IMG/VR virus record: IMGVR_UViG_2778261643_000010
Source of the DNA: a virus
Taxonomy: Duplodnaviria > Heunggongvirae > Uroviricota > Caudoviricetes
DNA length: 24,518 bases
Direction: 5' to 3' (one strand)
The translations under genes and the position numbers were made by a program. Shown here one piece after another: positions 10,591 to 24,493 of this stretch. The notes under the pieces were generated by a model. The model was given only the letters and a program-made list of their open reading frames with translations, was not told where the DNA came from and made no database searches. How positions within the stretch are numbered: position 1 is the stretch's first letter; each line of letters begins with the position of its first letter.

Positions 10591-13500
10591 CTATATTTTT
10601 CCGCCTACGCCTTTAAACTTCTCAATAAACGAGACGATTTTCTGGAAAACTGCCTGTTTTTTCGTTTTATATTGCGGATTCAACGGACTAAGTTTTGGTA
10701 ATGTTTCGTTTAATTCTGTGCCATTTTCGGTGGCGTATTCGCGTTTTAAAGACGTGCGAATATAGCGTTTTGCTGCTTCTTCATTGAGGTTTTCTTCTTT
10801 TATCAATGCTTCTGCTTCACGTTGCTGTTCGCGTTGAGCAAACGTAAAGAATGCCTCAATGATACTGGCTTTGTCTGGTAAATCATCCAGGTTCGTTTGC
10901 TGAATAAAATCGACCACCAGGCCCTCTTTCGCCCGGTTTCCCAGGCTTGAACGAATTAAGCGTTTGACCTCTTCGATCATTTCGCCCTTGCCTTTATTTT
11001 GTCTGTTGTGTTCGAAAATCAGTCCAAGGATATAATCCAGGTTTATTTCCTGAGACTTCAGCAAATCGACCTCAAAAACTACATCATCCCAGTCAGTGGT
11101 TGATTTCTCTTTTTTCTCAGCTTCTTTCTCACGGCGCTGCCAGTCGCGAATATCGTTATAGGCAGAACGATAATCCTGAATCTTGCGATCAGCAGGGAGA
11201 CGAATTGTTTGCAATTCAGCGAACTTTTCATCATCCACATAATGTTCTGCTTTGAATTTTTCTACCGCAACAGGATCGCTAAGATCGATTTGTTGCAGGG
11301 CTTTTAGCGTGGCAAATTCATCATAGTTTTGCAGGATGTTCTCGGCACGCAGGTATTCGCCAAACAGTTTAACGAAGTCTTTCTTCTCTTTTTCACTTTC
11401 AATACTGGTAGGGTCAGGGAACCGTTGTTCCAGTTCTGAAACTACTGTCATGAAGCCGCGTTTAGCTTCACCAGTGGCAGCATCAGTAAAGCCTTCCATA
11501 TACTCTGCATAACTCTTTTCTAAAACCACATTTTTGGTATTTTTGTCACCAAACAGCGTTATGGCATCAATGGTTGAGCGTTCCAGATCCCGGAACGTGA
11601 CGATATTACCGAAGGTTTTAGTCGCGTCATAAATGCGGTTGGTGCGGGAGAATGCCTGCATCAGGCCGTGAAAACGCAAGTTTTTATCGACGAATAGCGT
11701 GTTCAATGTTGGAGCGTCGAAGCCGGTTAAAAACATCCCAACGACAATTAACAGATCGATATCCTGATTTTTAACCCGTTGGGCTAAATCACGATAGTAG
11801 TTCTGAAAACCGTTACTGTCGGTACTGAAGTTAGTTTTAAAATAGCTGTTATATTCACGAATTGCAGCGTCGAGAAACTCTTTAGCACTGCTGTCCATTG
11901 CGCTGGTATCAAAAGTTTCATCGGAAATTTCACCAATGGCATTTTGTTCTTCATTAGCGGCAAAGGAGAAGATTGTCGCAACACGTAGTGGTTTATAGGT
12001 AGCAGATTTATAAGCGGCTTCCTCTTGTAACCGTTTAAACGTCGCGTAATAGGCTTTCGCGGCATCCACGCTGCTCACTGCCAGCATGGCATTAAAACCT
12101 TTGGAGCCAGGGAAAGTACGGTGGGTTTTCTGGCGGAAGTTATTCAGGATATATTGCGTAATTTCCTGAATACGCATGGGATGAAGGAACGCCTGCTGAT
12201 TTTCAGCCGCACTCAGTTTTTTCTCGTCAGTTTCTGTCTCTAAAGACTTAAACTGTGGCCGCACATCGTTGTAGTCCACCTTGAATTTAAGCACTTTTTC
12301 ATCACGAATCGCATCGGTAATAACATATGAATGCAATTCACGGCCAAATACGCTGGCGGTCGTTTCTGAGCCTAAGGCGTTTTCCGGGAAAATAGGTGTG
12401 CCGGTAAAACCAAACTGATAATAGCGTTTGAATTTCTTCTTCAGGTTTTTCTGTGCTTCTCCAAACTGGCTGCGGTGACATTCATCAAATATAAACACCA
12501 CTTGCTGATTGTATACAGGCAGGTCGCTTTCTGCTTTCATCAGGTTATTAAGTTTCTGAATAGTGGTGACGATAATTTTGTTATCGTCCTTATCCAGATT
12601 TCGTTTAAGACCTGCGGTATTTTCCGAGCCGTTGACGCTGTCTGGCGAAAAACGCTGATATTCCTTCATGGTCTGGTAATCGAGGTCTTTCCTGTCGACC
12701 ACAAAGAAAACTTTATCAATAAAGTCCAGTTCTGTTGCCAGACGCGCGGCTTTAAAGCTGGTCAGGGTTTTACCGGAACCCGTGGTGTGCCAGATATACC
12801 CACCGCTTTCCGGTTTTGACCAGTTCTTCGCTGTAAAGGAGCTCTTAATTTTCCACAGAATGCGCTCGGTGGCGGCAATCTGGTACGGTCGCATCACCAG
12901 TAGCGTCTGACTACTGTCAAAAACGCTGTAGTTCACCAGAACATTCAGCAGAGTATGTTTCTGGAAAAAGGTAGCGGTAAAATCTTTGAGGTCTTTAATC
13001 AGCGTGTTGTCTGATTTCGCCCAGTTCATGGTGAAGTCAAAACTATTTTTATCGCGCTTTGTGGTGTTGGCAAAGTAACGGGTATCGGTGCCGTTAGAAA
13101 TGACAAACAGTTGCAGATACTTAAACAGGGAATTTTCGCTGTTAAAACTCTCTTTACTGTAACGATGTATCTGGTTGAAAGCCTCACGAATCGCCACGCC
13201 GCGCTTTTTCAGTTCGATTTGCACCAGAGGCAAGCCATTAACCAGGATAGTTACGTCATAACGGTTAGCGTGAGAACCTGCCTGTTCAAACTGCTGGATA
13301 ATCTGCACTTTGTTGCGCATGAGATTCTTTTTATCTATCAGATAGATGTTCTCAAGACGCCCGTCGTCAAAAATAAAGTCGCAAATATAGTCGATATGGA
13401 TTTTACGGGTCTTATCCAGAATGCCATCGCTCGGGTTGTCCAGATACTGCTCCGTGAAACGCCGCCACTCGCTGTCATTAAACACCACACCATTGAGGCT

Positions 13501-13707
13501 CTGAAGCTGTTCCCGAACATTGGACAGCATAGCCGACTGAGATTTTACGGATATAAATTCATAGCCCTGATTCCGCAGGTCCTGAATCAGTTCACGTTCC
13601 AGGTCCGATTCGCTCTGGTAGCTGTCGCCTGTTGGCTCAGCTTTGATGTACTTATCAAGGACGATAAAGTTATTGGATTCAGCAATAGTGTGTGTCTGAT
13701 GAGTCAT
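10591..13707 (-). CDS. hsdR: Type I restriction enzyme R subunit (HsdR), EcoR124-family (Type IC)
   Basis: Walker A motif [11 protein letters not shown] and DEAD-like [10 protein letters not shown] are present. The ORF track begins at 13767, but ATG 13707 ([11 protein letters not shown]) has an AAGGA ribosome-binding site and gives about 1038 aa, the length I recall for EcoR124I HsdR. Confidence 0.9.
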
Positions 13708-13828
13708 AGCGCATCCTTTGTGCCGTCTGGCAAGGGCCGGAAGGGAGTTAAGGGTGACTTCCGGCACGTAAAAAATAGTCTATATACAGACCGGATGTTA
13801 AGGTGGTCCGGTCGGTAGCAATGGTCAA

Positions 13829-15085
13829 TTAATTACTGACAGTTTCAGGTTTCGGGAAACTGAACAGTAAGTCACGATAGTACTCGTATTGTTTCTGGCG
13901 CAACTCGATTTCACGCGGGAGACCTTCGGTGATGGAGTTGGTCAGGGTGTCGAATTTATCGAGCAGAGCAGATATTCGCTCTTGTTTCTGTTTATCAGGC
14001 AATGGCACTGGTAATGTTTTTATAATATCTGCATTCAAGTTACTGACCGACCCGCTATTGATTTTACTTTCCCAATAATTTTTCACCTTTTTTGATGAAA
14101 GATAGTGATACAGATAATCAGCATTTAATTTTTCACCAAAATTGCTGATTGATGCCCATCCATCATGGATAGCTCCGGTTATCCTTAAAATATATGGTCT
14201 GCCAAAGCTCATAGAGTTAGAAATGACGAAATCACCGGGGTTCAAGATTCGCGATTTTTGGGCACCCTCTGCAGTTATTTTTTGTAAGGTTTTGTCAATG
14301 TATTTAGAGCCGGGGATAGTATCTCCGATTTTAATCCATGGGATACCATTTCCTTGTTCAGTAAGATAATTAACAATTGGCCTGGGGGATGCCCCACGTT
14401 GTATTTTGGCTACTTCTCCCAATGCCTTCCACTCAACCTCACCCTCTTTAAAACTCAGCAACTGGTCGCGATAGTAGTTGTACTGTTTTTTACGCATGTT
14501 AAGCTCAGCGGTAAGCTCAGCGGTAAGTGCAGTAAATTTGTCCAGAATCCGAACGATTTCAGACTGGATGGCGAGGGATTTTTCCGGATTATCCGGGCAG
14601 GGAATTGGGATGAGTAGTTTTGACATCAATGCATTTGAGCTTAGATTCGGTTGTGCTCCGCCCCCGGCGAGGATATAAATAGTCTCTGTATTTAACAATA
14701 AAAAATGGTATAAATAATTATTGTTTAGAATATTTTCTTTGGGTATGAATTTTCCAACCCGTTGGTTAAGATAACATTTTGTTCCTTTTTTATAAATTCC
14801 CACTTTTCCTGTAGTGGCACCTGACATTGCAATCAATATATTTCCCATAGATACCTCAAAGGAGGATAAATCTTCCTTGTAATCATTTAGTGAAAAGTAT
14901 TTCACCTCATCTAAGTCAACATTAAATCCATCTATATTTGTGATTCTAACTATCGGTAACCCAGTTTCTTTAAATAAGCTGCTTTTAAATGCAAATCCAT
15001 TTTTAAAATCACAAACATCCTTCAAGGGTTTCCACTCAACCTCAACCCCATCCAGCAATTTTTCCAGATAACTCAACTCGCTCAT
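13829..15085 (-). CDS. hsdS: Type I R-M specificity subunit (HsdS) with two target-recognition domains and a central TAEL-repeat region
   Basis: It has the conserved central block [54 protein letters not shown] and a conserved C-terminal block. The start overlaps the hsdM stop (ATGA). Confidence 0.9.
14501..14536. repeat. Two perfect 12-bp tandem repeats (AAGCTCAGCGGT) plus a degenerate third unit, encoding LTAEL-TAEL in hsdS
   Basis: Direct reading of 14501-14512 and 14513-14524, then the diverged unit AAGTGCAGTAAA. Confidence 0.85.
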
Positions 15086-16638
15086 TTCTGCACCTCGCAG
15101 CCTTCAATTTCAGCCACAATCGCATCAATATCTTTACGCAACTGGTCGATTTTGCTGACCGTGATTTTCAGCTCTGCATTCAACTCAGCGATATCGATAA
15201 TTTCGCGAGTATCTTTCGCTTCAACATAGCTGCTCACCGACAGGTTATAGTCATTAGCAACAACGGTCTCAAACGCGACTGATTTCGCCAGATGAGCAAC
15301 ATCTTCCTTGCTGGCAAATACCTGCATAATCTGTTCGATATGGGCATCGGTCAGGATATTGTTGTTGGTCTCTTTTTTGAATAGTTCGCTGGCGTCAATA
15401 AACTGAACTTTTGTATCTGTTTTATGTTTAGACAACACCAGAATGTTTACGGCAATGGTGGTGCCAAAGAACAGGTTCGGTGCCAGTGAAATCACGGTTT
15501 CGACATAGTTATTATCAACCAGATACTGACGGATTTTCTGCTCCGCGCCGCCACGGTAAAAAATACCCGGGAAGCAAACAATCGCAGCACGACCTTTGGC
15601 AGAAAGATAGTTCAGCGCATGTAGTACAAAGGCGAAGTCAGCTTTTGATTTGGGGGCCAGAACGCCAGCCGGGGCAAAACGTTCATCGTTAATCAGCGTC
15701 GGGTCATCGCTGCCAATCCATTTCACCGAATACGGCGGGTTAGAAACGATGGCATCAAACGGTTTTTCATCTCTGAAGTGTGGTTCAGTCAGCGTATTGC
15801 CCAGCTTGATATCAAACTTGTCGTAGTTGATGTTGTGCAAAAACATGTTCATACGCGCCAGGTTATAGGTCGTATGGTTGATTTCCTGACCAAAAAAACC
15901 TTCTTCGATGATATGGTCATCAAACTGTTTTTTAGCCTGCAACAACAGCGAACCGGAGCCTGCTGCCGGGTCGTAGATTTTGTTAACGTGGGTCTGCCCG
16001 TGCATAGCCAGTTGTGCAATCAGCTTAGAGACGTGCTGCGGTGTAAAGAACTCGCCGCCGGACTTACCGGCATTCGCGGCATAGTTAGAAATCAGGAACT
16101 CATAGGCGTCACCGAACAGATCAATCTGATGTTCGGTGAAGTCACCAAGTTTTAACCCTTCAACCCCTTTCAGAACCGCAGCCAGGCGGGCATTTTTATC
16201 TTTAACGGTGTTACCCAGGCGGTTACTGGTGGTATCGAAATCAGCAAACAAACCTTTGATGTCTGCTTCTGAAGGGTAGCCGTAAGCAGAACTTTCGATA
16301 GCAACGAAGATACTGTTTAAATCTGCATTCAGTCTGTCATTGGTATTTGCTTTCGCAGCTACGTTGCAGAAAAGCTGGCTTGGGTAGATGAAGTAGCCTT
16401 TGGTTTTGATGGCATCGTCTTTAATGTCATCAGTAATTACGCTGTCATCCAGTGCTGCATAACAGATGCTGTCATCATCGGCTTCCATATAGCTGGAAAA
16501 ATTTTCGCTGATAAAACGATAAAAAAGCGCGCCCAGAACGTACTGCTTAAAATCCCATCCATCGACTGAACCCCTGACATCGTTAGCAATTTGCCAGATC
16601 TGGCGATGAAGTTCTGCACGTTGTTGAATACTTGTCAT
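15082..16638 (-). CDS. hsdM: Type I R-M N6-adenine DNA methyltransferase (HsdM)
   Basis: Contains the AdoMet-binding motif [11 protein letters not shown] and the catalytic motif VSNPPYS. Confidence 0.9.
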
Positions 16639-16768
16639 TTTCTTCCACTTATTTCAGGCTTAAGTAATTGGCGGTGATTCTACAGCAACTTTGATGCTTT
16701 AGCAGTTCGGACATTAGGCAACGAATGACCTAATTAGAGCTTTTTGGAAAAGCGGTATTGTCGGTGCG

Positions 16769-16993
16769 ATGATAGCTATGTTTGGGTTCGCGATGGTGCA
16801 ATACAATGACGGTGAAAAGGTAAGCATCCAGTCTGATGGCTGGTATGGGCTGGATAGCCTGCAAAAAACCGCAGATAAAGCCTGTCAGCAATATGGAAAG
16901 TCTAAAGCCGTATATCAGCATAGCGCGAACGCTAATCCACATCTCGCGCCCGGCACGGGCGTTCAGAACACTATTTGGAAATGCGAACCATAA
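16769..16993 (+). CDS. Hypothetical small protein (74 aa)
   Basis: ORF only; no clear ribosome-binding site. It overlaps an antisense ORF (16730-16942), so the coding status is uncertain. Confidence 0.25.
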   Translation: MIAMFGFAMVQYNDGEKVSIQSDGWYGLDSLQKTADKACQQYGKSKAVYQHSANANPHLAPGTGVQNTIWKCEP

Positions 16994-17176
16994 CGCAGGT
17001 TGGCTTTTTACATCTTGGGCCGAATACTGATTCCGCGCTAAGTTGTTTGTGCGGAAGTGACACTGTGGAGCTTAGAAATAGTAAATACTGGTGGGCAACA
17101 AATTGAGCCTTCACACGCTCACCAGCACACACAAAAAATGGTTAAACAGCAAGGGAATTAATATCTCAGCGCGACA

Positions 17177-17314
17177 TTAAATAAGCCAGCGCACGCCTCT
17201 GTTTATCACTGACTTGAAAAACCATATCAGAACCACGATGAAGACAATCGCCAGCACTTGGCTAAGAACAGGCGCATTTAAAAATGCACTTAGAAACTGA
17301 AAAAATACAATCAT
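17177..17314 (-). CDS. Candidate small membrane protein (45 aa, MIVFFQFLSAFLNAPVLSQVLAIVFIVVLIWFFKSVINRGVRWLI)
   Basis: Has GAGGA eight nt upstream of the ATG and is strongly hydrophobic. It lies in an otherwise gene-poor spacer. Confidence 0.3.
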   Translation of the reverse strand: MIVFFQFLSAFLNAPVLSQVLAIVFIVVLIWFFKSVINRGVRWLI

Positions 17315-17782
17315 CAGGGTAATCCTCGTCAAATGTAAAGCTGTGTGCTCTCACGTTGACGTAGAAACCCAACCTCTATATAGTTGGATTCGGTGAAAGA
17401 AAGTCGTTAACGTGAACTTACGGCACATGTTTTCGGTATAAAAATCAGGGAACTGTGAATTCCTTGATGTAGTTGGGGCCTGTAATGCAGGCCCTATCTA
17501 TTAATGTCATGATTACATCTCAAATTTTCTCCTTATCATTATTATTTAATAAAATTCAATTAATAAAATATCCATTTCCTGTGTGTGCAAACACAGTATG
17601 AGGAAAATGGCCTCGTTGCAAGTGCATAACTTTGTGGATAACTCTGAAGGCGAATTTACATTTCGGCGCACCGCAAGCCAGATAAGCTGTGCGCAAAAAG
17701 CAATGGGGTGAGAAAAAAACTTTGAAGATATTGCGGCGACTAAATAATAGCCGTTATTCAATTATTCTGGATGGGATTTAAT

Positions 17783-21562: not shown

Positions 21563-22015
21563 ATGTTACTTAACTGGCAGGGACGCCACTTCATGGAAAT
21601 AAATCACTCACGAATAACATCGTACGAGATTGCGGATTACATGATCCGCACTAAATCTCTTCTATCAGCGAAAGAACTCGCAGCAATTCTTGAAAAGGAA
21701 TACCCGCATCTGGATGTCGATAAGCGCGATGTTTATCTGCGCTTAAAGGCTATCGCTGTGTCTAAGTATTCGTCTGTTTTGATTGATGACAGTACACGCC
21801 CACGTAGATTTCAGATCCACTCTCTGAATCCTGAATTCTTTCGCCGTAGCCGCGCTCCGCGCCGGTTTGATGAAAAACTCCAGAACGAACTCTATATGAC
21901 GCAGGACGAAAAGGAACGCCGGGAGCACCAGCCTTGGGTAATGGCGCGTCAACTTTTCAATAAGGTGGCCCGTCAGCACCGTCATTACGGTAATGCCACA
22001 TCCGCACGTATCTGA
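21563..22015 (+). CDS. lpa: Putative late promoter activator (assigned by synteny only); start may be ATG at 21593
   Basis: A 150-aa ORF between the doc-distal genes and pacA, which is where P1 carries lpa as I recall. No motif-level support. Confidence 0.45.
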   Translation: MLLNWQGRHFMEINHSRITSYEIADYMIRTKSLLSAKELAAILEKEYPHLDVDKRDVYLRLKAIAVSKYSSVLIDDSTRPRRFQIHSLNPEFFRRSRAPRRFDEKLQNELYMTQDEKERREHQPWVMARQLFNKVARQHRHYGNATSARI

Positions 22016-22100
22016 TTGATTGCTTGCCCGTTCCGGGCCTTTTGACATGTGACTTTCGTTACCCTCGCGTCAAAAAGAGTTTTTACGAAAGGAAGCATAA

Positions 22101-23294
22101 GTGACCTGGGACGATCACAAAAAGAATTTTGCTCGCCTGGCGCGAGATGGTGGTTACACCATCGCACAGTATGCCGCCGAGTTTAATCTTAACCCTAATA
22201 CCGCACGTCGTTATCTCCGTGCCTTCAAAGAAGACACCAGGACTGCGGACAGCCGCAAGCCAAATAAGCCAGTCAGGAAGCCACTAAAAAGCATGATCAT
22301 TGATCACTCTAATGATCAACATGCAGGTGATCATATTGCGGCTGAAATAGCGGAAAAACAGAGAGTTAATGCCGTTGTCAGTGCCGCAGTCGAGAATGCG
22401 AAGCGCCAAAATAAGCGCATAAATGATCGTTCAGATGATCATGACGTGATCACCCGCGCCCGCCGGACCTTACGTGATCGCCTGGAACGCGACACCCTGG
22501 ATGATGATGGTGAACGCTTTGAATTCGAAGCTGGCGATTACCTGATAGATAACGTTGAAGCGCGGAAGGCCGCGCGCGCTATGTTGCGTCGGTCCGGGGC
22601 TGATGTTCTGGAAACCACTCTTCTGGAAAAGTCTCTCTCTCATCTCCTTATGCTGGAGAACGCCAGGGATACGTGTATTCGCCTGGTGCAGGAAATTCGC
22701 GATCAGCAAAAAGACGATGATGAAGGAACTCCGCCTGAATACCGTATCGCGAGCATGCTAAACAGCTGTTCCGCGCAGATAAGCAGTCTGATCAACACCA
22801 TTTACAGCATCCGGAATAACTATCGAAAAGAAAGCCGGGAGGCGGAAAAGCACGCTTTATCTATGGGGCAAGCTGGCATTGTTAAGCTGGCATACGAACG
22901 AAAGCGTGAAAATAACTGGTCAGTGCTGGAAGCAGCTGAATTCATCGAGGCGCATGGCGGGAAAGTGCCGCCCCTGATGCTGGAGCAAATCAAAGCCGAT
23001 CTGCGTGCTCCTAAGACCAATACCGATGATGAGGAAAGGCAAACAGCCGTCGGTGGCCCTTCTCTTGAAGATCTGGACAAAGTTGCGCGAGAACGGGCCG
23101 CCAACCGCCGCGCCGATGCCGCATTGTGGATTGAGCAGCGTAGGGAAGAAATCGCCGATATCGTTGATACAGGCGGTTATGGAGATGTTGATACTGAAGG
23201 TGTATCAAACGACCCATGGCTGGAACAAGACCTGGACGAAGACGAGGAGGAAGACGAAGAAGTTACCCGCAAGCTATACGGGGATGATGATTAA
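22101..23294 (+). CDS. pacA: Terminase small subunit / pac-recognition protein PacA
   Basis: GTG start with AGGAAG ribosome-binding site. The N-terminus [38 protein letters not shown] matches what I recall of P1 PacA. The pac hexamer cluster lies inside the gene. Confidence 0.85.
22294..22452 (+). promoter_or_regulatory. pac packaging site: four TGATCA hexamers (22294, 22301, 22313, 22328) and three TGATCA/G (22424, 22436, 22447) flanking the presumed cleavage region
   Basis: Direct reading gives seven Dam GATC sites in a 4+3 arrangement, the architecture described for P1 pac. Confidence 0.8.
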
Positions 23295-24493
23295 TGGCCA
23301 GAAGTTGCGTAACGGATCCACGTTGGCGCGAGCTGGTGGCGCTATATCGTTATGACTGGATTGCTGCCGCTGATGTTTTGTTCGGCAAAACACCTACCTG
23401 GCAGCAGGATCTGATTATTGAGTCTGTGCAGGAACAGGGTAGCAAGACATCTGTTTCGTCTGGTCACGGTACCGGGAAATCAGACATGACTTCTATCATG
23501 ATCATGTTGTTCATAATCATGTATCCCGGTGCCCGCGCCATTATCGTTGCGAACAAAATTCAGCAGGTAATGACCGGTATATTCAAGTACATCAAGATAA
23601 ACTGGGCTACTGCCACCAGCCGTTTTCCATGGCTTGCTGATTATTTTGTTCTGACAGAAACCGCTTTCTATGAGGTTACTGGTAAAGGTGTATGGACTGT
23701 AGTACCGAAGGGCTTTCGTCTGGGAAGTGAAGAAGCTCTCGCCGGTGAACACGCAGATCATCTTCTGTATATTATCGATGAAGCCTCCGGTGTCAGTGAT
23801 AGAGCTTTCGGTATCATCACCGGTGCTCTTACCGGACAGGATAACCGCATCTTATTACTGTCACAGCCTACACGCCCAAGCGGCTATTTCTACGATACTC
23901 ACCATAAACTGGCCAAGCGTCCTGGTAACCCAGATGGCGTTTATACGGCGATCACGCTTAACAGTGAGGAATCACCGCTGGTAACGCCAGAATTTATCAA
24001 AATGAAGCTGGCGGAGTACGGCGGGCGTGATAACCCTATGTACATGATTAAGGTGCGTGGCCTATTCCCTAAATCACAGGACGGCTTCCTTCTTGGACGT
24101 GATGAGGTTGAACGTGCAACGCGGCGGAAAGTTAAGATTGCCAAAGGATGGGGCTGGCTTGCATGTGTGGACGTTGCTGGTGGTACGGGACGGGATAAGT
24201 CAGTTATCAATATCATGATGGTGTCCGGCCAGCGAAATAAACGCCGTGTAATCAACTATCGAATGCTGGAATACACAGACGTTACAGAAACGCAGCTTGC
24301 CGCCAAAATTTTCGCAGAATGTAATCCTGAGCGATTCCCAAATATCACCATAGCGATAGACGGCGATGGCCTGGGTAAAGCAACGGCGGATCTGATGTAC
24401 GAGTATTATGGTATTACCGTACAGCGTATACGCTGGGGTAAAAAGATGCATAGCCCTGATGAATCCCCTAATGATTTTTATCAAAATCATTAA
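23294..24493 (+). pseudogene. pacB: Terminase large subunit PacB, truncated by IS10; native sequence ends at 24455 and the last 12 codons plus stop are IS-derived
   Basis: Walker A GHGTGKS and Walker [10 protein letters not shown] are present. The coding sequence runs into CTGATGAATCCCC at 24456. TAATG overlap with pacA. Confidence 0.8.

Follow-up and report, generated by a model that had tools for sequence, protein, structure and literature searches.

With a probability of about 90%, the window, that is, the whole stretch of 24,518 bp analysed here, belongs to a P1-like phage-plasmid of the same type as pSvP1, RCS47 and SJ46 and carries the canonical pac site, situated in a defective prophage that was recently inactivated by insertion sequences (IS). 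In the draft assembly GCA_002513315.1, the window makes up the whole of contig NLWS01000025.1. The pac site confirms this contig as part of a P1-like phage-plasmid and marks the point from which packaging would start, and taken together with the two IS insertions it places the element among recently inactivated prophages. A pac site in a P1-like phage-plasmid is an already known feature, real but ordinary, and the finding has little import beyond correct annotation. A small addition to existing knowledge is that the pac hexamers are under clear selection at the DNA level across natural P1-like elements, with six of the seven kept in a distant relative.

The pac site and its match to P1

An earlier note on this DNA, made from the letters alone, had described a complete P1-type pac site inside pacA, with seven TGATCA/G hexamers in a 4+3 arrangement spanning positions 22294–22452. 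A search for the pattern TGATCR recovered these hexamers exactly, all on the + strand, and a gap-free alignment with the annotated P1 pac bore out the completeness of the site, with identical hexamers, spacing and cleavage region (Table 1). This alignment, which had been proposed as a check, covered positions 22260–22500 against NC_005856 and gave 238 identical nucleotides of 241 with no gaps. Every hexamer lies in the same column as its counterpart in the functional P1 pac, with no difference in spacing. The three differences from P1 within the 241 nt are at 22334, 22361 and 22462, none of them within a hexamer, and the eighth TGATCG, which lies outside the seven-hexamer site, is also identical to P1. 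This eighth copy is shared with P1 and with 81 of the 82 close relatives, and is not conserved in Cronobacter phage JK004. The 82 close relatives used throughout comprise P1, NZ_CP122822, 78 IMG/VR contigs and two entries for the contig of the window itself. The pac site occupies codons 65–118 of pacA, in the 5' third of the gene as in P1, and lies 3' of lpa and LPpac. The positions of the IHF site and of the primary cleavage were transferred from the RefSeq P1 record NC_005856, in which both are annotated inside pacA.

Table 1. Coordinates of the packaging features and of the two interrupted ends of the window
Feature	Position	Strand	Basis and remarks
IS10-family end (ISVsa5-type, transposase-proximal 'outside' end), 59 nt	1..59	.	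Perfect inverted repeat of 24456-24514
Gene 5 (baseplate) homologue, 5' remnant, 103 of 210 codons	60..368	-	Cut by the left IS
lpa, late-promoter activator driving pacA/pacB expression	21563..22015	+	99-100% nucleotide identity to P1 lpa; Pfam BPP1_LPA
Late promoter LPpac	22047..22065	+	95-nt lpa-pacA spacer 100% identical to P1, where LPpac is annotated
pacA, intact 397-aa ORF, pac-recognition subunit of terminase	22101..23294	+	P1 homology, PHROG 1711
pac HEX4 (left arm)	22294..22333	+	Four TGATCA at 22294, 22301, 22313 and 22328; sequence and position as in P1
Putative IHF-binding site of pac	22356..22368	+	Position from P1 annotation; AAACAGAGAGTTA here, AAACAAAGAGTTA in P1
pac cleavage positions, both strands (primary)	22376..22385	.	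Transferred from P1 annotation 90804-90813; sequence identical
pac HEX3 (right arm)	22424..22452	+	TGATCG at 22424, TGATCA at 22436 and 22447; same as P1
Eighth TGATCG, outside the seven-hexamer site	22475..22480	+	23 nt right of HEX3
pacB (large terminase), codons 1-387 of 494	23294..24455	+	Residues 1-387 identical to the intact PacB of NZ_CP122822
IS10-family (ISVsa5) end, 63 nt, to contig end	24456..24518	+	63 of 63 nt identical to ISVsa5 of NZ_AP027786

The study given for the pac site of bacteriophage P1 is reportedly that of Sternberg and Coulby from 1987. The P1 site has been described as a 161-bp sequence within pacA that holds seven TGATCA/G hexamers (HEX4 and HEX3) with Dam sites, an IHF site and a cleavage site, a description with which the earlier account of seven hexamers carrying Dam sites agrees (PMC10028697). 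The location of P1 termini at pac cleavage sites has been re-confirmed by sequencing (PMC5557969). Judged by its sequence, the window matches the literature definition of pac feature by feature, and cleavage and Dam dependence at the site would follow from homology with P1.

The hexamer cluster also exceeds what is expected by chance. The window contains 87 GATC sites in total (3.55 per kb), and its densest cluster is that of 7 sites in 159 bp. In 300 first-order Markov simulations, the top GATC cluster per 159 bp held mostly 3–5 sites and reached 7 once, and same-strand clusters of TGATCR stayed at 4 or fewer. A Poisson scan gave an expectation of about 3e-4 clusters of such size per window.

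Terminase genes and the truncation of pacB

The genes next to the pac site are those of a P1 packaging module. The lpa gene is annotated as such in P1 and its relatives. PacA has 96% amino-acid identity to P1 PacA, and the gene has 96% nucleotide identity to P1 pacA and 98.6% to that of phage RCS47. The protein matches PHROG 1711 'terminase' with E = 2e-204, and its matches in Pfam and NCBIfam are confined to weak helix-turn-helix or transposase-like hits at the N-terminus.

The disruption of pacB that had been claimed for this DNA was found as described, with the match to the intact 494-aa PacB ending after residue 387, at the point where an IS10-family end starts at 24456. The intact relative NZ_CP122822 reads GATGCATAGCC followed by GTGAAGATAAG at this point, and the window reads GATGCATAGCC followed by CTGATGAATCCCC. 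The truncated ORF continues through 12 IS-encoded codons after residue 387 to a stop at 24491–24493. Megablast alignments of relatives that extend to 24459 or 24462 owe their last few nucleotides to a chance resemblance of the IS end to pacB and were set aside; the junction proper is 24455/24456. Intact PacB has a match to PHROG 2 'terminase large subunit' that spans residues 33–474, and its residues 424–468 align weakly with the C-terminus of the Sf6 large terminase gp2. The window PacB, which ends at residue 387, falls short of the full-length large-terminase profile with its C-terminal nuclease region. Searches for the PacB family in Pfam and NCBIfam gave no match. The truncation thus takes away the last 107 residues, part of the presumed nuclease domain, and from the architecture of large terminases the function of PacB is likely to have been lost. 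Among the 82 close relatives, the pacB ORF is truncated at 89–343 aa in five (IMG/VR L017, L031, L038, L068 and L074), some of which are possibly sequencing errors. A broken pacB with an intact pac is not unique to the window.

IS ends and the nature of the window

The window is bounded by two copies of an IS10-family element that are inverted relative to each other, and only 59–63 nt of each copy are visible. The body of the left copy extends leftward beyond position 1. The reference used for ISVsa5 was the annotated 1,329-bp copy in NZ_AP027786 (IS10 family, IS4 family). Besides pacB, a second lesion lies in the baseplate gene 5, the remnant of which was compared with the intact gene of NZ_CP122822 (baseplate protein, locus L004 2678–3310) and with P1 gene 5, located just after dbn.

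Between the two IS ends, positions 60–24455 have 100% nucleotide identity to NZ_CP122822, and positions 1473–24459 have 100% nucleotide identity to pSvP1. The pacB junction was not found in 72,556 plasmids, 5,426 complete E. coli genomes or IMG/VR, and searches of the same 72,556 plasmids and of IMG/VR did not find the gene 5 junction either. Because of the complete identity to intact plasmids and the absence of the junctions from these collections, the insertions are probably recent and private to the source strain. IS10 has a target preference with the consensus NGCTNAGCN, and the 9-bp sequences adjoining the junctions, TGCATAGCC and TACATAGCC, resemble it. A reading of TACATAGCC and TGCATAGCC as the target duplication of a single transposon was rejected, as each is native backbone at its own locus.

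The claim that pac was retained even though pacB is disrupted held in its facts, pac being intact and pacB cut, but the combination is not remarkable. An intact pac is to be expected because the lesion is about 2.1 kb away and probably young, and there has probably been no time for the site to decay since the insertion. Its intactness gives no sign of selection for helper dependence.

A type I restriction-modification operon with hsdR, hsdS and hsdM lies on the - strand at 10591–16638, in place of P1 pmgT-pmgV, and is apparently intact; its hsdR is listed at 1058 aa and has an EcoR124_C domain. The P1 record notes homology to EcoDXXI/R124 hsd flanks at the position of the operon. About 1.1 kb between hsdM and hot (16639–17770) is free of ORFs longer than 75 aa and of gene calls in the source record; this stretch may be the equivalent of the small P1 genes upfM-upfO and their promoters. 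Rfam and tRNA scans of the whole window gave no matches.

Conservation of the hexamers

Identity to P1 at pac was considered as evidence of selection and dropped, as identity to P1 is 97–100% all along lpa and the first 900 nt of pacA; divergence from P1 appears at the 3' end of pacA (87–91% identity) and, most of all, in pacB (69–76%). Since identity to P1 is uninformative by itself, selection was judged by polymorphism at third-codon positions and by comparison with JK004. In the 82 close relatives, none of the 14 third-codon positions inside the hexamers varies, compared with 27 of 66 (41%) outside the hexamers in 22260–22500 (Fisher p = 0.0018). Counting all columns of the 241 nt, 51 of 199 non-hexamer columns and 2 of 42 hexamer columns are polymorphic in these relatives; of the two hexamer polymorphisms, one occurs as a singleton and the other, A>G, leaves a hexamer that still fits TGATCR. 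Of the 84 loci compared, 81 have all eight hexamers at the same offsets.

A search of GTDB genome contigs with a degenerate pattern for distant relatives of PacA yielded no usable match, and a scan of IMG/VR for PacA returned close relatives alone, with at least 97% amino-acid identity. JK004 is therefore the sole distant comparator. Aligned without gaps over the 159-nt site, JK004 and the window are identical at 37 of 42 hexamer columns and at 57 of 117 other columns (p = 7e-6). Hexamers 2–7 of JK004 have the same sequence as in the window and identical spacings of 12, 15, 96, 12 and 11, while hexamer 1 is not conserved, leaving a 3+3 core. In the same comparison, the PacA protein is conserved least in the stretch that contains pac (about residues 45–125). 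By the invariance at third-codon positions and the retention of hexamers 2–7 in JK004, these sequence comparisons show that the constraint acts on the DNA, as purifying selection at the DNA level.

Possible packaging by a helper phage

The earlier note had further suggested that the segment could be packaged in trans by a co-resident P1-like helper. Such packaging of window pac DNA is plausible, and its mechanism is sound and not new. In P1, pac is cleaved by PacA and PacB together with IHF/HU, and Dam methylation of the hexamers controls this cleavage. By analogy with P1, Lpa would activate LPpac in late lytic growth, PacA and PacB would bind the HEX4 and HEX3 arms with their Dam-methylatable hexamers, IHF would bend the DNA between the arms, and the PacA/PacB complex would cut at about 22376–22385, from where headful packaging would proceed processively in one direction. 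In the element of the window, one ISVsa5 copy has removed the PacB C-terminus and the second, inverted copy has interrupted gene 5. Because the element has no intact gene 5 either, PacB alone from the helper would not suffice. With PacB and gp5 from the helper and lytic replication of the element, cutting of pac and packaging of the DNA to the right of it would be expected. The window itself contains no functions for lytic replication.

Packaging in P1 is unidirectional from pac, towards pacB, c1 and lox. With this direction, the first headful would take the 2 kb right of pac and then pass through the IS into DNA beyond the window, and for the 22 kb left of pac, packaging would require a concatemer or a circle shorter than a headful. 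It is very doubtful that the IS10-bounded block persists as a helper-dependent element with its pac cut by a second, compatible P1-like phage-plasmid or by superinfecting P1 in lytic growth. If it did, high-frequency, one-directional headful transduction of host-replicon DNA right of pac would be expected, and the element would be a natural counterpart of engineered 'guided transduction' from a chromosomal pac. Defective P1-like plasmids could still move by means of a helper. This bears on how resistance or virulence cargo spreads and is already implied by work on P1 phagemids.

Alternative explanations

An assembly or population artefact, with most plasmid copies carrying an intact pacB and the element not being defective, is an unlikely explanation of the pacB break. 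It is prompted by the draft status of the contig, both ends of which stop within the same IS repeat with nothing visible past 63 nt, and by the absence of the pacB junction from all three collections in which it was sought and of the gene 5 junction from both of its two. However, at the junction pacB has no long k-mer in common with the IS end by which the two could have been falsely joined, both junctions adjoin 9-bp targets of the IS10 type (judged by the consensus given above) as expected for real insertions, and the contig is listed under three samples. Another reading takes the IS10-bounded block of 24.4 kb as a selected, helper-dependent transducing or satellite-like module and not as a freshly broken prophage. 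The block does hold pac, lpa, pacA, phd-doc and type I restriction-modification between two inverted IS10-family ends, and P1-like plasmids are known with two replicon types, IncY and p0111, so that two P1-like elements could in principle coexist in one cell (PMC9603915). This is nevertheless highly improbable, as the block is collinear with and 100% identical to ordinary P1-like plasmids, each IS junction lies within native backbone at one of two separate loci, neither junction is present in any other record searched, and contigs that end at IS repeats are a normal outcome of short-read assembly.

Two further alternatives concern the pac site itself. Faithful cleavage of P1 pac needs the IHF site, and the consensus for IHF binding, WATCARNNNNTTR, usually has R at the position equivalent to 22361. 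The putative IHF site of the window lies between the hexamer arms and matches that of P1 at 12 of 13 positions, the exception being 22361, which is G in the window and A in all the named phages compared (P1, RCS47, JL22, SJ46 and JK004). This A>G change is the sole substitution within an annotated functional sub-element of pac and raises the question of a site that is intact in sequence but functionally weakened. Such weakening is distinctly improbable. Of the 82 close relatives, 18 carry the G allele, which is common in nature and fits the R of the IHF consensus, a full-length PacB of 494 aa is encoded by 75 of the 82, and the IHF site of JK004 differs from that of the window at further positions, so the site tolerates variation. 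The idea that the GATC cluster is simply a coding by-product of PacA, with no function at the DNA level, starts from the dipeptides encoded by the hexamers (D-H, D-Q, D-R, M-I and V-I), the residues of which are conserved in PacA alignments. It can be regarded as excluded by the invariant synonymous positions of the hexamers, next to neighbouring third positions of which 41% vary, by JK004, in which six hexamers keep their exact sequence and spacing although the protein segment around them has strongly diverged, and by published experiments on P1 in which synonymous recoding of the hexamers lowered the titre about 9-fold (PMC10028697).

Comparison with known systems

The pac site of P1, annotated in NC_005856 at about 90.72–90.88 kb, has the same place in pacA as that of the window, the same 4+3 hexamers at identical offsets, an IHF site between the arms, and lpa and LPpac upstream. 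Cronobacter phage JK004 is more distant, with about 71% nucleotide identity in pacA, and has the pacA-pacB-c1 synteny in common with the window.

Among P1-like plasmids, the closest to the window are those of porcine enterotoxigenic Escherichia coli (ETEC). In pSvP1 (NZ_MN510446), a porcine ETEC plasmid known for IS-mediated rearrangements (PMC6906374), and in NZ_CP122822 of porcine ETEC1731, a type I hsd block replaces pmgT-V as in the window. In both records pacB is intact at 494 aa, as a direct check showed for NZ_CP122822, and unlike the window neither has IS10 at the two insertion sites. The IS10 of pSvP1 lies elsewhere, in nmpC, and NZ_CP122822 has an IS1203 in the hsdR region and no hsdR annotated.

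An ISVsa5 with 63 terminal nucleotides identical to those of the window has hit the same packaging module in NZ_AP027786, an IncY P1-like plasmid of E. coli. There, the complete 1,329-bp element (locus L002 23503–24831) lies inside pac at the point that corresponds to 22405/22406 of the window, with the target duplication CGCTAAGCG. It is inserted between the cleavage site and HEX3, and parts HEX3 from HEX4, the IHF site and the cleavage site. With pacB intact and pac split, this plasmid is the mirror image of the window, in which pac is intact and pacB cut. Several haplotypes among the close relatives carry a 22400 G>T allele that creates GCTAAGC, a perfect IS10 hotspot core, at the spot of this insertion.

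Engineered systems offer a parallel to a pac site that has lost its own complete terminase. Phagemids that bear pac, as well as pac inserts in the chromosome, have been packaged by helper P1 (PMC10999674, PMC8544901). The engineered P1 phagemids and chromosomal pac constructs are those of Westwater 2002, Kittleson 2012 and Huang and Masters 2014, as cited in these two papers. Like the window, such constructs have a pac without a complete terminase of their own, and they are packaged with the proteins of the helper P1. They differ in being engineered, usually with a P1 lytic replicon, whereas the case of the window is one of natural IS insertion.
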